Part shown: in pieces, positions 38,050 through 45,088 of the stretch
Layout: each line of letters begins with the position of its first letter
How positions within the stretch are numbered: position 1 is the first letter of the stretch
From: Longimicrobiales bacterium
GTDB lineage: Bacteria; Gemmatimonadota; Gemmatimonadetes; Longimicrobiales; Gaopeijiaceae
Reading direction: 5' to 3'
Assembly: GCA_963664435.2 (NCBI GenBank)
Contig: CAXXKM010000001.1
Coordinates: 160,001 to 224,000, forward strand
Length of the DNA: 64,000 nucleotides
Notes under the pieces: model-generated
Told to the model about the DNA's origin: nothing
What the model saw: only the letters and a program-made list of their open reading frames with translations
Databases searched by the model: none
Program-made: the position numbers and the translations under genes

Positions 38050-39044
38050 CGGGCGAAGTACCCGCTCACCCGCGCGAGGAGGTTGTCGTACAGTTCCCAG
38101 AGCCGGTCGGCTCCGGGCACGTCGGCGATCCCGGCATTGTCGATCCCCATCAGGATCATCACCGCCGCGAACAGGATCAGCACCACGAACGCCGAGGCGC
38201 TGAGGCCCCGACCCCGGCCGTGGGAGACGGACTCGGGTCCCGGGCCGTTTCGGGGCTGCGCGGGGGCGGTGGCCGCGGCTGCCGGAGCCGGCTCCGCTTC
38301 GGCCACGGAGGGTTCGTCCGCCTCCCCGCCGTCATCGAATCCCGGCCACAGCGTGGCTCGGTAGGTCTGCCCGCCGAGGCGGTTCTCTCCCTTCCCGGTC
38401 ACCGTCGTGACGGAGGTACCGTTGGGGGCCGGACCCAGCAGCGCGATGGCGTCCCTCAGTCCCACGCTTCCCAGCGCGCCCATGGGTTCGCCCTTGCAGC
38501 CAAGCACGATCGAAGGGGTGCCGCGCGGATGGAAGGGCGATTCGGCAGCCTGATAGGTGACGACCATGACGCCGCCCTCGACCAGCGCAGCAAGAAGTCG
38601 ATGCCACGCGGGACGGTGGAGCAGGCGGCGCGGATTCGCCACGGGAGTCCCCGCCGTGGCCACCCAGAAACTCCCGTCGTTGGCGGGGCGGGCGATTCGC
38701 CCCAGGGAAGCGCCGTACTCGATGGCGTCGCTGATGCCCTCGAGATTCTCGCTGTTGAACGCCCCGTGCAGATGGGGCTCGTCGAAGCACAGGTCGACGA
38801 GCAGCACGCGTGCTCCCCGGGAGGCCCAGCTCCCCGCGATCGCCACGGCGGCGTGGACGGCCCAATCCTTGTGGCGTGCCCTGGAGCTGGCCCGGACCTC
38901 GACCAGCCGCCCATGCTCGGAGCCGATGGGAAGGTCGCGGTCCAGGATGCCGGAGGGGACGTCCGGGGAAAAATCAAAGGGCTGCAACTGCAGCGCGGAA
39001 GCGCCGGGCTCGGATCGCGCGGATGCATCACCCGGGGGGGTCAT
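38046..39044 (-). CDS. Hypothetical protein, degenerate MinD/CpsD-like domain with C-terminal TM
   Basis: GARVLLVDL.F..P.LH..F...N.EGISD resembles the MinD/CapB region after Walker A, but no intact Walker A; C-terminal hydrophobic helix; overlaps rsfS and smc by ATGA. Confidence 0.65.
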   Translation of the reverse strand: MTPPGDASARSEPGASALQLQPFDFSPDVPSGILDRDLPIGSEHGRLVEVRASSRARHKDWAVHAAVAIAGSWASRGARVLLVDLCFDEPHLHGAFNSENLEGISDAIEYGASLGRIARPANDGSFWVATAGTPVANPRRLLHRPAWHRLLAALVEGGVMVVTYQAAESPFHPRGTPSIVLGCKGEPMGALGSVGLRDAIALLGPAPNGTSVTTVTGKGENRLGGQTYRATLWPGFDDGGEADEPSVAEAEPAPAAAATAPAQPRNGPGPESVSHGRGRGLSASAFVVLILFAAVMILMGIDNAGIADVPGADRLWELYDNLLARVSGYFAR

Positions 39045-39433
39045 GGCGGCCCGCCCTCCGTGTCCGGCGCAAGCTCGTGGCGGGGCGCGTCCCCCCAGAG
39101 CGCCTCGAGCTGGTAGAAGGACCGCACCTCTGGATGAAACACGTGTACGACGAAGTCGATGTAGTCGATGAGAACCCAGCGGCCTTCCCGCCCTCCCTCC
39201 GTGTGCGCGGGGTGGGTTCCCTCCTTGCGCAGCTGCCGGGTCACGTGGTCCGAGATCGAACGCACCTGGGTGTCGGAAGTGCCGGTCGCCAGGAGGAAGT
39301 AGTCGGTGGCCGAGGAGATGCCGCGCAGGTCGAGCACGACCACGTCGCTGGCTTTGCGTTCGAGCGTCAACCGGGCCGCCCGCCGGATCGCGGGCGGGAG
39401 GCCGGAATCGCCGAAAAGGGCAGCTTCGACCAT
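39041..39433 (-). CDS. rsfS: Ribosome silencing factor
   Basis: KASDVVVLDL, DYFLLATG.S..QV, WVLIDY.D.VVHVF...R.FY.LE.LWGDA. Confidence 0.96.
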   Translation of the reverse strand: MVEAALFGDSGLPPAIRRAARLTLERKASDVVVLDLRGISSATDYFLLATGTSDTQVRSISDHVTRQLRKEGTHPAHTEGGREGRWVLIDYIDFVVHVFHPEVRSFYQLEALWGDAPRHELAPDTEGGPP

Positions 39434-39453
39434 GCGCGGGGCGCCCGGCGGCC

Positions 39454-39909
39454 TCAGCTCGTCCTTTCCACGTGCACCGTCACCTTGACCTCCACCTCCG
39501 CGTGGAGCTTGATCGGAACGTCGAAGACGCCCAGCGTCTTGATCGGTTCTGCAAGGTTGACGTGTCGCTTGTCCAGAACGAAATCCAGCCCCGAGCTGAC
39601 CGCCCGTTCGGCGATGTCGGCAGCGGTCACGGAGCCGAACAGCTTGTCGGATTCGCCCGCGCGTGCCCGGAACACGAGGTGCATGCCCTCGAGCCTGGAG
39701 GCGCGCCGGCGGGCTTCCAGGTACGCCCTGCGGGCCCGCTCCTCCGACCGCCGCTGCTCCCGCTCCAGCCGACGGACGTTGGCCGCGGATGCTTCGTAGG
39801 CGAGGCCGCGCGGCAGGAGGAAGTTGCGGGCGTAGCCCGGTTTCACGTTCACGACATCGCCCGGTTCACCGAGGCGATCCACGGTTGCCTTGAGGATCAG
39901 TTTCACCAT
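39454..39909 (-). CDS. rplI: 50S ribosomal protein L9
   Basis: LG..GDVVNVKPGYARNFLLPRGLA, KLFGSVT, PIKTLG, LHAEV; AGGAG RBS before ATG 39909. Confidence 0.97.
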   Translation of the reverse strand: MVKLILKATVDRLGEPGDVVNVKPGYARNFLLPRGLAYEASAANVRRLEREQRRSEERARRAYLEARRRASRLEGMHLVFRARAGESDKLFGSVTAADIAERAVSSGLDFVLDKRHVNLAEPIKTLGVFDVPIKLHAEVEVKVTVHVERTS

Positions 39910-39975
39910 CCACTCCTGGTTTCTCGAAACATGCGGGCCTGCGCCGTCAGGCGCCACGCAGGCCGGGGTTTTCGG

Positions 39976-40879
39976 TCACGTCCGCTGGGCTCGGGCGCGG
40001 ATGTCCACCCAGGTGTCTCCCAGCCCGATCAGCAGTGCCGCCGCGAACAGAAAGGGTGCCAGCAGCAGGAAGGCGAGCGCAAGCAGGACCCATCCGAGGG
40101 CGGACACGCCGCGGGTCAGGGCGACCGCCACGCCAGCTCCGCGCAACGCGTAAAGCGCGCCGGTAAAGGCGAGCAGGTTCAATCCGGCCCGGCCCGTGGC
40201 GCCGTCGGCGCTGCAAAACGAACATCACCGCGCCCGCAACCAGCAGCCACACCAGCTGGTCGTTGAACCGGAAGTCGCGCAACGGGCCAAGTCCTTCGCC
40301 GCTTCCGCGCACCAGGCGGACGTAGAGCCACCATGCGGCTCCCAGCGCGGCGAGAGACGACAGTCCGAGCATCGCCGGAAACAGGTTGCTCTGCCACTCC
40401 GCCGCCTGGAATACCGTGCTGATCACGGTCCCGGGGAGCGGAGTTCCGTCCCGGAGCACGCGCAGCGCTTCCAGGGACGTGCTCACCCCGTCCCGCAACC
40501 TGGTCGCCACCATCCGGTCGATGATTGCCCAGCGCCGGGGGCTCAGTCCCAGGGCGGCCCATGCGCCGGCACCGGCAACCGCGATGGCCAGCAGCGCCCG
40601 GGGCAGGAACCGCCGTTCGGGCCACCGCAGCGTCACGGCGGCGAAGCAGCCGCCCAGGATGATCGTCCATCCACGCTCGACGTACCACAGTCCGGATCGG
40701 GTCGCGCCCGCCAGCGCCATCACCATCCCCAGAGCGCCGGCCATCACGGGCAAGGCCCGCTTCGCGGGCGCGCTGAAGACGAGCCAGGCGAAGGGGATCA
40801 GCACCAGGACGAGGGGAGCGAAGACCGAGAGCACCAGCGTCGCGAAAAACAGGGCTCCCGCCCGCCCCCAGCCCCTCAA
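39976..40879 (-). pseudogene. DUF2232/YybS membrane protein, frameshifted near 40215
   Basis: First frame is hydrophobic up to FRFNDQLVWLLVAGAVMFV and then becomes nonsense; a second frame continues SADGATGRAGLNLLAF...LIGLGDTWVDIR. Removing one base from the A4 run at 40215-40218 joins them. Confidence 0.75.
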
Positions 40880-40906
40880 CGCGGCCCCCGCCCGACCAAG
40901 GGCCGG

Positions 40907-41557
40907 CTACCCCTCGTGACGGCGCACGTAGGGAAGCAGGGCCAGGTAGCGCGCCCGCTTCACCGCCCGTCCCAGCTTGCGCTGAAATCCGGCGGCCACG
41001 CGAGTGGTGCGCCGGGGGAGGAGCTTGCCCTGCTCGGTGACGAAGCGCGACAGCGTGGCCACATCCTTGTAGTTCAGGATGGTGATCGGGGGACCTTCGA
41101 TGCGCCTGCGGTGCCCGCGCCCGCCGGAGAACTCGGGCGGGCTCGTGCGGACCTCGGCTTCTTCTTCCCCGCCCTTTTCCTCGCCCTCGGCGTTGTCGTC
41201 CCCGCGGGATTCCTCGGGCGCACGGGAGGCCGGAGGGGCCTCGGCAACCATCGACAGTCCCGATGAGGGTTCGCCCTCGTTTACGACCAGGAGGTACCGG
41301 AGCACGCCCTCGTCGAGCTTCATGATGCGCTCCAGCTCGGGCAGGCTTGCAGGATCGCCGAGAAACTGCGTCACGACGTAGTGGCCGGAGGTCTGCTTCT
41401 GGATGGGGTAGGCGAGCTTACGGCCGCCCCAGTGGTCCACGACCCTGATTTCGGCGTCCCCGCCGGATACCAGGCCGTGGAATCGGTCCATCTTCTGCTG
41501 GATGGCATCCTCGCCCAGGGCGGGATGGAAAATCACAACGAGTTCATAGTCGCGCAT
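40907..41557 (-). CDS. rpsF-rpsR: Fused ribosomal proteins bS6-bS18
   Basis: One [13 protein letters not shown]...[16 protein letters not shown]...VLRYL (bS6), an acidic linker, then [24 protein letters not shown]...[13 protein letters not shown] (bS18). Confidence 0.93.
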
Positions 41558-41725
41558 GGTCTCTCCCATGGTCCGCGTCTTGACGGGCCTCGCTCCCGGG
41601 AGGGCTGTCTGCGGGAAGATTCTCCTCCGGGGCCGAGGCGGGATCGGCAAACGGAATATACCCTTCCGGACCGGAGCTTCAACCCGGAGGCCGCCGCGTG
41701 GGCAAGGGGTTCGGTCCCGGGAAGC

Positions 41726-42931
41726 TCAGCCGCTCCCTGCCGCTTCCTGCACGGCGAGGATCAGCGACGGATAGCGGCTGAACGCCCAGCGGGCCTCCTC
41801 GACGTCGAGACGTTCGCGGTTGGTGTGCGCGTAGCGCTCCTCCCCGGGGGCGAAGCCGATGGTCGGAATCCCGAACACCCCGCAGGTCCAGCCTCCGTCA
41901 GTGGCGAAGGTCCAGGGGCGGCAGTGGGCGGACGTGGCGGGATCGCCGCGGCGCCCCACCGCTTTCGCGGCCGCCGTCACCACGGCGTGGTCGGGTTCCA
42001 TGAGGAAACCCGGCGTGAGCAGGTTGCGGTCGGCGGACCGGCCCGTGTAGGAGGTCTGGCGCTCCGAGGCGAGGCGGCACTCGATCGCATAACCCGCCGG
42101 AACATCCGGGAGCACCTCGGCGATCGCGTCCTCGACCCGCCCGATGAGGCTTGCCTCGGTATCGGCGGGCAGGATGCGCCAGTCGAGCACCACGATGACT
42201 TCGTCGGGGATGACGTTGGGGCTCTCGGGGCGCACCCGGACATCGGTGGGCGCCAGGCTCGCCGGCCCCAGGACGGGATCGGACTCCTGCCGCCGCGCGA
42301 GGGCGGCGATCCCGGTCAGCACGCCGGGCAGCAGGTCGAGGGCGTTGCGGGCGCGGTCGGGGGCGCTGGCGTGCCCGGCGAGACCACGGATCACGATCTC
42401 GAGCTGCGCGCGGCCGCGGTGACCCAGGGCGATGTCGCCGTACGTCGATTCGCCGATGATCGCCGCCGCGGGATTCACCAGGCCCGACCGCACCAGGTTC
42501 TCCATGCCCCAGCCGCCCCGCTCCTCGTACACCACCTGCCCCACGATCACGTCGCCGGGCGCGCGGTCGGCGAGGGCGGCGGCGGCGTAGACCTGGAGCG
42601 CCATGGGGCCCTTGATGTCCATCGCCCCGCGGCCATGCAGGTGGCCGTCCACGACTTCGCCGCTGAACGGCGGATGCTCCCACTCCTCGTGGGCTCCCTC
42701 GGCCACCACGTCCAGGTGGCAGGAGAGCATCACCGGGGGCGCATCTCCCCTTCCCCTGACGACTCCGGCGACGCTGCCCAGCCCATCGACCTCCACCCGG
42801 TCGAAGCCCAGCACGCGCATCTCCTCCTGGAGGCGGGCGGCGACTTCGCCCTCCTCGCCGCTCATCGAGGGAATGCGGATGAGATCGGCGGCGAAAGACA
42901 GGGCGTTTTCGAAGGTCGGCTCGCGGCTCAT
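41726..42931 (-). CDS. M20 family metallo-hydrolase (ArgE/DapE/YgeY-like)
   Basis: [43 protein letters not shown]. Confidence 0.92.
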
Positions 42932-42970
42932 GGGCTCAGGCTCCGGGTCAGGCGCGGGAAGAGGCGCGGG

Positions 42971-45088
42971 CTATCCGAGAAGGGCTTCCAGAACACCCCG
43001 CACCCACGACATGCCAACTCCGCCCTCCCCATGCACGCGCACGAACCAGGGAGCCAGCACGAGAGCCACCACGCTCATCAGCTTGATGAGGATGTTGAGC
43101 GAGGGACCCGAGGTATCCTTGAAGGGATCCCCGACGGTGTCGCCCACGACCGCGGCCTTGTGGGGCTCGGAGCCCTTGCCGCCCATCGCTCCGCCCTCGA
43201 TGTACTTCTTCGCGTTGTCCCAGGCGCCGCCGGCGTTGGCCATGAAGAGCGCCATGAGCACGCCGGTCACCGTCGCGCCGGCGAGCAGTCCCCCCAGCGC
43301 CTCCACACCGAGAAAGCGGCCGACGATCACCGGCGACAGCACGGCGATGACTCCCGGGAGGATCATCTCGCGCAGCGCCGCGCGGGTGGAGATGTCCACG
43401 CAGCGGGCCGAATCGGGTTTTGCGCGGCCTTCCATGATGCCGGGGATCTCGCGGAACTGGCGCCGCACCTCGGCGACCATCCCGGCCGCCGCGCGCCCCA
43501 CGGCGGTCATGGTGAGCGCCGCCACCAGGAAGGGCAGCGCCGCGCCCAGGAAGAGTCCGATCACGACCAGCGGGTCGACGATGCTGATCCCGGTCTGCTG
43601 GAGGCCCACCTTGGTGGTGTAGGCGGAGAAGAGCGCGAGGGCGGTGAGCGCCGCGGAGCCGATGGCGAAGCCCTTTCCGATCGCCGCGGTGGTGTTGCCG
43701 ATCGCATCCAGCGAGTCGGTGATCCTGCGGGTCTCCTCCCCGAGGCCGCTCATCTCGGAGATGCCGCCGGCGTTGTCCGCGACGGGCCCGTAGGCGTCCA
43801 CGGACATGGTCACACCCACGGTGGCCAGCATGCCGACGGCGGCGATGCCGATGCCGTACAGCCCCGCCGCCATGAACGAGACGAAGATCGCGAGGCAGAT
43901 GAGAAGCACCGGGATCACCGTGGACTCCATCCCCACTGCCAGCCCGGTGATCATGTTGGTTGCGGAACCGGTGTCGCTCGCGCGGGCGATCCGGTGCACC
44001 GGCTTGCCGGCCGTGTAGTACTCGGTGGCCAGCCCGATGAGGATCCCCACCAGGGTTCCCGCGAGGATCGCCCAGAAGGGCCCCATCGGGGAGTACGCGG
44101 TGTCGCCGTCGGCCAGCTGCAGGTCCAGCGATCCGACGATTAGGTACATCGCCACCAGGAAGAGGCCCGCGGCGACGAAGGTGACGTTGCGCAGGGCGCC
44201 GGCCGGGCTGCTGCGCTCAAGGACTTTCATGGCGGCGATCCCGAGCAGCGAGGCCACCAGCCCCGCCATCACCGTCAGCAGGGGCAGCGCGACCGTCTCC
44301 GCGACGCTGGCGGAGGTGAGCTGCGAGGTCGCCGCGATGGCAATGGTGGCAATGATCGACCCGACATACGACTCGAAGATGTCGGCGCCCATGCCGGCCA
44401 CGTCCCCCACGTTGTCGCCCACGTTGTCGGCGATGGTGGCCGGGTTGCGCGGATCGTCCTCCGGGATGCCCGCCTCGACCTTGCCCACGAGGTCCGCCCC
44501 CACGTCCGCCGCCTTGGTGAAGATGCCGCCGCCCACGCGCGCGAACAGCGCGATGGAGCTGGCCCCCATCGCGAAGCCGGAAACGATCTCCGAGAAGCGC
44601 GGGAAGTCGCTGGTGCCGGGGATGGCGCCCGCGGCGAAGATCCAGTAGAAGATCCCCACCCCGAGCAGCCCCAGCGCCGCCACCGAGAGACCCATGACCG
44701 CGCCCCCCGCGAAGGCGATGCGGAGCGCCTTGCCCTGGCCCTCGCTGCTGGCCGCGGCGGAGGTGCGCACGTTGGCGCGCGTGGCCGCCTTCATGCCGAA
44801 GAAGCCGGCGAGCACCGAGGAGGAGGCGCCCGCCACGTAGGCAACCCAGGTCCAGCCCGGTATCGCCACCGCCAGCAGGATGGCGACCAGCACGACGAAC
44901 CCCGCCAGCACCGTGTATTCGCGGCGCAGGAACGCCATCGCTCCGTCGTGAATCTGGTCGGCGAGGTCGACCATCACGGCCGAGCCCGGGTCCTGCCCGC
45001 GCACGTAGGCGAAAACCCCGCCGGCCGCCGCGAGCCCGACGACGCCGAACATCCAGGCCCAATTCGCAAGGGGTACCAAGTCGTTCAT
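42971..45088 (-). CDS. hppA: Membrane pyrophosphatase, K+-dependent type (likely Na+-translocating)
   Basis: [50 protein letters not shown] (Ala at the K+-dependence site), [14 protein letters not shown]. Confidence 0.96.

Follow-up and report, generated by a model that had tools for sequence, protein, structure and literature searches.

Ribosomal proteins S6 and S18 are textbook components of the ribosome that are obliged to heterodimerise before they bind rRNA. The locus described here raises the question of whether a Longimicrobiales bacterium makes both of them as one chain from one gene and, if so, how such a chain arose and how it would work. We analysed a stretch of 64,000 nucleotides (hereafter the window), in which a preliminary description had placed a natural fusion of bS6 and bS18 on one stop-free open reading frame (ORF).

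Both proteins in one open frame

The ORF is a single frame on the minus strand without an internal stop (Table 1). Its first part matched the Pfam profile Ribosomal_S6 (PF01250) over residues 4-91, scoring 94.2 bits (cut-off 27), and its last part matched Ribosomal_S18 (PF01084) over residues 159-208, scoring 69.6 bits (cut-off 21), which identifies the two halves as bS6 and bS18. S18 chains from the PDB aligned to residues 156-215 of the fused protein with E values of about 1e-16. The source genome (4.51 Mb in 3 contigs, 96% complete) gave one S6 match and one S18 match, both within the fused frame; a second rpsR, a possibility that the preliminary description had raised, was absent. One ORF with S6 followed by S18, each the sole copy and the arrangement kept in relatives, constitutes a single-chain S6-S18 architecture, and the proposed fusion was thus confirmed as a genuine in-frame rpsF-rpsR fusion that is family-wide and the only copy of both genes.

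An AlphaFold2 (AF2) model built on a 57-sequence alignment placed the S6 elements at E2-10, H16-31, E36-52, E55-67, H69-81 and E85-93 (pLDDT 71-89), a beta-alpha-beta-beta-alpha-beta order that we take to be the ferredoxin-like fold. The linker between the halves had a pLDDT of 30-39 and is predicted to be disordered, and with pLDDT below 50 from residue 95 on (residues 95-188) the model places S18 relative to S6 without confidence. Among the 60 best of 107 PDB matches, no single solved chain contained both domains. In the S18 core, K200 and R203 were invariant across 57 aligned family sequences.

Table 1. Features of the fused locus and its surroundings in the window. Identities are mean pairwise values from an alignment of 53 unique family proteins.
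Feature	Position	Strand	Basis and remarks
Fused rpsF-rpsR CDS	40907..41557	-	ORF and Pfam; ATG at 41557, 216 codons (216 aa) plus TAG stop (40907-40909)
bS6 domain, residues 1-92	41282..41557	-	Pfam PF01250; AF2 fold; 89-93 aa; identity 0.61
S6-tail motif, residues 93-106 (NEGEPxSGxS...)	41240..41281	-	14 aa in every family protein; identity 0.65
Hypervariable acidic linker, residues 107-138	41144..41239	-	23-164 aa in family; identity 0.15; mean D+E fraction 0.39
Junction motif, residues 139-158	41084..41143	-	20 aa in every family protein; identity 0.77
bS18 core, residues 159-216, predicted zinc-free (C-) type	40910..41083	-	PF01084; 58 aa in every family protein; identity 0.78
Sigma-70-like promoter, TTGAAG-16-TATATT	41655..41682	-	No second site in 39300-41800; shuffles predict 0.1
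5' leader resembling rpsF_leader	41563..41643	-	Covariation in 55 aligned leaders
310-aa membrane protein gene, weakly DUF2232-like	39947..40879	-	PF09991 E 0.021, 14.5 bits, under cut-off 27.8
rplI (bL9), last gene of cluster	39454..39957	-	Pfam Ribosomal_L9_N and Ribosomal_L9_C

Distribution in Gemmatimonadota and probable origin from split genes

Besides the source genome, 118 members of its family (order Longimicrobiales) were examined, and 116 of them proved fused. In one of the remaining two (G246) the S18 part lies at a contig start, so that its fusion state cannot be judged, and the other (G203, 93% complete) gave no match. The 116 comprise 12 genomes of a first sample that were not re-sampled, 74 with a single full-length match, 26 with verified ORFs, G058, G168 and G242 (two matches each, both inside one open frame), and G176, where the contig breaks off but the visible part is fused. 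A stop-free full-length match was present in 24 of 24 other family genomes of that first sample (7 genera, 57-95% identity), and the genes were split in 16 of 16 genomes from two sister families. Wider sampling of the order brought in 106 family genomes: 74 had a single stop-free full-length match, 31 had two matches and one had none. Loci were read for 28 of the 31 genomes with two matches, and in 26 of these a single ORF of 231-345 aa opens with S6 and closes with S18; a fused ORF of 270 aa was found at locus L075.

No fused genome was found outside the family among the Gemmatimonadota genomes searched. A sample of the phylum (176 genomes from eleven other families) yielded two matches only, or one match with internal stops, and 20 of these genomes, which had long S6 open frames, carried S18 in separate frames of 72-136 aa. 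Sister-family genomes with two matches had S18 open frames of 61-163 aa in 74 of 80 cases, and where loci were read (the six with longer S18 frames, and two more) all were split. Eleven such genomes stood outside the individual check (G207, G213, G217, G220, G226, G228, G230, G052, G097, G161 and G170), and the split counts include nine unpublished genomes (G025, G052, G097, G111, G161, G170, G316, G398 and G417) judged by match pattern, on which no conclusion here depends by itself. These counts support the fusion as a lineage marker for one Longimicrobiales family, as the preliminary description had suggested it might be, and separate genes in close relatives, which it had named as grounds for rejecting the fusion, did not turn up: every family member that could be judged was fused. 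The fusion therefore offers a clean marker of an uncultured, partly sponge-associated family.

One missed stop could in principle create an apparent fusion. Errors of sequencing or assembly were considered, as was a pseudogene in decay, and nothing in favour of either was found. Contigs from three other studies spanned the ORF with 0 indels. One (X1) covered the whole 64,000-nt stretch with 0 differences, and as it is near-identical it may be the source of the same DNA; a second (X6) covered 40802-41645 with 0 differences; and a third (X9) covered 40700-41650 with 6 substitutions, 4 of them within the ORF and all of these in third positions and synonymous. Against an artefact also stand the recurrence of the fusion across the 116 family genomes, single-contig assemblies among them, and the fact that the ORF holds the only S6 and S18 of a 96% complete genome. 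This reading has already been refuted, and we attach practically no probability to it. Contigs from an RNA library (X18, one run) covered just 40907-41146, and the longest piece differed from the window by 8 letters, so that these contigs are no evidence for expression of the gene in this organism or for a single transcript.

The split relatives suggest how the fusion arose. We read 42 split loci (22, 12 and 8 in three batches), and in all of them rpsR followed rpsF directly, with neither ssb nor priB between. The absence of ssb/priB between the two halves, noted in the preliminary description, therefore holds for the fused locus but is ancestral and no part of the fusion event. The rpsR ATG of split loci lay 0-6 nt past the rpsF stop or overlapped it (TAATG, TGATG), often in the same frame. 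Split S6 proteins in the 42 loci were 111-224 aa long, with an acidic C-terminal tail that was often poly-Glu/Asp, and the tail-end codons GAGGAGGAG resembled a Shine-Dalgarno sequence for rpsR in many loci. A '(N/S)EGEPTAPMSIATREPR' motif homologous to the S6-tail motif of the fused family was present in the S6 tails of split relatives. One base change in the rpsF stop would fuse the genes in 16 of 16 loci with a single in-frame stop, a subset picked for that property and thus not a frequency. Stand-alone S6 proteins of 181-224 aa with very long, low-complexity, Ala/Glu/Asp/Pro-rich acidic tails were observed at five loci (L096, L100, L102, L104 and L106) of another Gemmatimonadota family (f7), so expansion of the S6 tail is not confined to the fused family.

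Compared with the split rpsF and rpsR of sister families and other Gemmatimonadota, the fused family shares the operon order (rpsF, rpsR, membrane protein, rplI), the acidic S6 tail with its (N/S)EGEP motif, and the leader described below, whereas the stop and abutting rpsR ATG of the split genes are both missing from it. We propose that the rpsF stop and the abutting rpsR start were lost in the ancestor of one Longimicrobiales family, which would have made one polypeptide since. Its chain would consist, in order, of the S6 fold, a pre-existing disordered acidic S6 tail serving as linker, a new basic junction and a zinc-free S18 core.

Linker, junction and the zinc ligands of S18

The Glu/Gly/Pro-rich linker of the preliminary description was recovered at residues ~94-146, although it is not the new insert that it might seem, as most of it is the ancestral acidic S6 C-terminal tail that is present across the phylum. 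A replacement of bS21 by the linker was ruled out, as bS21 is present. The linker occurred in 33 distinct lengths in the family, every one of them in frame, which indicates that translation of S18 depends on the S6 frame. The junction that follows it had the family consensus (S/G)PPEF(S/T)G(G/A)RG(R/H)RRRx(E/D)GPPI (in short form PPEFSGxRGRRRRxEGPP), with E142, G145, G148 and R151 invariant and P140, P141, F143, G146, R147, R150, R152, G155, P156 and I158 nearly so. Among the sequences examined, PPEFSGxRGRRRR was found in the Longimicrobiales type only. The source genome has no in-frame ATG, GTG or TTG from codon 107 to the S18 core (codon 162), in keeping with the earlier remark that no start immediately precedes the bS18 part. 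The same stretch was free of such codons in 27 of 54 family coding sequences, and in the rest they stood at scattered positions. With no conserved internal start, S18 would not be made without read-through from S6, and the fixed stoichiometry that had been predicted, 1:1 from a single ORF, is backed by this result.

Two readings would nevertheless give the ribosome a free S18. The chain might be a precursor that is cut within the linker or at the junction (around PPEF/SG, say), which would leave separate S6 and S18 in the ribosome, in which case the fusion would serve just coupled, equimolar synthesis. The pattern of conservation is what a recognition site might produce, since the junction is of fixed length and 77% identical next to a linker that is 15% identical, and its conservation equals that of the S18 core (0.77 against 0.78), which also suits a processing site; AF2 moreover leaves the whole stretch exposed and disordered. 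However, neither a protease nor a known cleavage motif was identified, and the split ancestors were already near-equimolar by translational coupling (ATG 0-6 nt past the stop), so that a precursor would add little. The RGRRRR part of the junction, furthermore, resembles the basic arm that we take ordinary S18 proteins to have at the N-terminus, and if that likeness holds, rRNA binding would explain its conservation without cleavage. We consider cleavage unlikely on balance. Still less likely, to the point of being very improbable, is that initiation inside the ORF yields stand-alone S18 alongside the fused protein. The GAG and GAGGAG codons of the acidic linker look like Shine-Dalgarno sequences, codon 103 is an in-frame ATG (the only one), and public gene calls sometimes begin within the linker, as fragments. 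Yet codon 103 lies inside the S6-tail motif that split relatives also have and is therefore not a new start, half of the family coding sequences offer no start beyond it and the others only scattered ones, and S6 would in any case always carry S18. We therefore favour a single chain that would stay uncleaved and enter the ribosome as such, a reading drawn from the sequences compared.

In the split genes, S18 began M-x-R-x-x-K-x-C-x-x-C-E, with C-A-R-H or C-S-P-H downstream, in 34 of 34 cases read. In contrast, the junction and S18 part of the fused proteins contained no Cys in 50 of 50 parsed; the set held 54 fused proteins, and the 4 that fell outside the parsing pattern (PPLF, PPEY, PPDY and PPIF) showed no Cys in that part either. 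All four zinc ligands of split S18 are gone, and the junction motif occupies the position of its zinc-knuckle N-terminus (CxxC). Since it has neither the CxxC nor the downstream Cys/His of the C+ form, fused S18 is by its sequence the zinc-free C- form. According to PMC6094098, paralogues of the C+ (CxxC, zinc-binding) and C- (zinc-free) kinds exist for S14, S18, L28, L31 and L33; fused S18 resembles their C- forms in having no CxxC, while the family proteins are single constitutive copies and the paralogues described there are zinc-regulated pairs.

Other ribosomal proteins were surveyed in three family genomes (G000, G041 and G043) and in one genome from each sister family, and each protein was single-copy. 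All three family genomes carried a long S14 with a single Cys and an L31 free of Cys, against four Cys in each of these proteins in both sister genomes. L33, L28 and L32 had no full ligand set in G041 and G043 but kept four Cys in G000, and the Cys of L36 were kept in all genomes compared. The genes for L31, L33 and L28 lay within ~1 kb of one another in G041 and G043, with S14 of G041 ~2 kb further. Matches over residues 1-101, taken as the long S14, were seen in 30 of 37 matching family genomes and in none of 68 sister-family genomes. The family thus appears to be shifting to zinc-free ribosomal proteins only in part, with the fusion more widespread than the shift. A strict link between the fusion and a generally zinc-free ribosome was rejected, since 7 of the 37 family genomes keep a short S14 of the four-Cys type (judged by match range) and yet are fused, as is G000 with its four-Cys L33, L28 and L32. 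The loci of this survey are recorded under G000:C3:1621286-1622333, outside the window, and L108-L137. A stand-alone zinc-free S18 as donor was rejected as well: the S18-only matches (63-77% identity) derive from the fused gene itself, as fragments of it or with a wrongly called start, and the PPEFSG..RGRRRR junction is present in most of the listed ones.

The fusion goes hand in hand with the loss of the S18 zinc ligands, and the partial shift of the family provides a testable lead on metal economy. In split relatives the CxxC...CxxH knuckle would fasten the N-terminal arm of S18, and the lineage seems to be replacing zinc-binding S14 and L31 (in some genera also L33, L28 and L32). We tentatively suggest, as a possibility that we ourselves doubt, that the fusion is a zinc-sparing device in which the tether to S6 via PPEFSGxRGRRRR takes over the structural role of zinc; the acidic linker, anchored on the platform next to the 3' end of 16S rRNA, could also modulate use of the anti-Shine-Dalgarno sequence.

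Operon, leader and other S6-S18 pairs

Downstream of the fused gene, the end of the membrane-protein gene overlaps the start of rplI. By tblastn, rplI was matched in 35 of 35 loci compared (family, sisters and other families, fused and split); in 30 of them the membrane protein stood between it and rpsR. Gene order is conserved. Upstream, both promoter hexamers were conserved across the genus. In the public run X9, 1466 other letters stand on a contig of a close relative where the window has 73 intergenic bases (41650 to 41724), immediately before the rpsF promoter and leader.

The leader, between the promoter and the start codon, was common to fused and split lineages. In its outer helix a 5' CC(C/U) pairs with (G/A)GG of the Shine-Dalgarno sequence GGGAG; in the inner helix CUCCGC pairs with GCGGAG, and an invariant ACC is present. 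A third small hairpin (CCGU/ACGG) was specific to the fused family and is an addition compared with the split Gemmatimonadota leaders. In the alignment of 55 leaders, 96.7% of cells were paired, and 5 pairs had changed in both partners; columns 96/183, for instance, hold C-G in 41 sequences but U-A in 13. The covariation score was reached by none of 500 shuffles. Slid controls, with the 3' partners moved by 1-3 columns, were 32-54% paired, a comparison that favours the structure because it was derived from the same sequences. Rfam searches over 38500-43500 and 41500-41760 returned no ribosomal leader family, just chance matches below gathering scores.

In PMC4647458, the rpsF_leader has an outer stem H1 that contains the Shine-Dalgarno sequence, an inner stem H2 and a conserved CC, and it binds S6:S18 and represses translation in Escherichia coli. 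The architecture predicted here resembles that description, with which it was compared as text and not as an alignment. The same paper has K60 and R63 of E. coli S18 contacting the conserved CC of both 16S rRNA and the rpsF leader; these correspond to K200 and R203 of the fused protein (158-215 aligned to 18-75 of E. coli S18), or are off by one if the paper numbers the mature protein. A leader that sequesters the Shine-Dalgarno sequence thus appears to be retained in the fused family.

By analogy with the canonical S6:S18 heterodimer, the two halves would pair within the chain, and the pair would bind the S15-primed central domain of 16S rRNA. The fused protein would also repress its own mRNA through the retained leader, as the heterodimer does. 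As a whole, an account in which loss of a stop and a start gave rise to a single-chain S6-S18, with pairing and autoregulation presumably carried over, is in our judgement the best explanation and probably correct. Compared with bS6:bS18 of E. coli and Thermus thermophilus (chains of 4v65 and 10fz), the fused protein has the same two Pfam domains in S6-then-S18 order, the K200/R203 contacts, the rplI neighbourhood and the rpsF-leader-like 5' structure. It would differ in being one covalent chain, in which the S6 tail and junction replace the C-terminus of S6 and the N-terminus of S18. Its long retention would show that the platform of the 30S subunit tolerates a covalent link of 55 to ~200 residues, and single-chain S6-S18 is a ready-made construct for studies of assembly and autoregulation, with one repressor chain instead of two. 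Further work is best directed at the lost zinc site, the conserved junction and the retained leader.

We found no description of a natural S6-S18 fusion in the literature searched, whose coverage excludes subscription journals. The Longimicrobiales fusion is nonetheless a modest variant of a textbook pair and not a new kind of system, and it is not unique to the lineage. A search of 1.84 billion sequences gave 43 candidate fusions picked among the 150 representatives listed; 39 have both domains, and they are other sequence types with 32-46% identity to the Longimicrobiales fusion. Ten distant fused representatives came from clusters of 1-3 members, some of the distant 'fusions' look like frameshift products (P0209 and P0248), and singletons were not counted as lineages. 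A proteobacterial-type fused lineage is real, comprising ~22 clusters at 46-83% identity on contigs of up to 553 kb. The joint Ribosomal_S6 and Ribosomal_S18 architecture that the preliminary description had singled out for a database search thus occurs in public clusters and in this lineage too. Like the Longimicrobiales protein, these fusions have S6 then S18 in one ORF, and databases name them 'S6' or 'S18' only; their linkers are shorter or otherwise different, and some keep the CxxC (e.g. P0264). Their S6 and S18 belong by sequence to other phyla, and their origins are independent.

All 120 listed public clusters carried both Pfam domains while their sources named them just 'S6', an annotation error through which S18 seems to be missing. 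Four public records of metagenome-assembled genomes (L033, L036, L037 and L048) carry the Longimicrobiales-type fused gene at 85-87% identity under the title 'Gammaproteobacteria bacterium', which looks like a mislabel.
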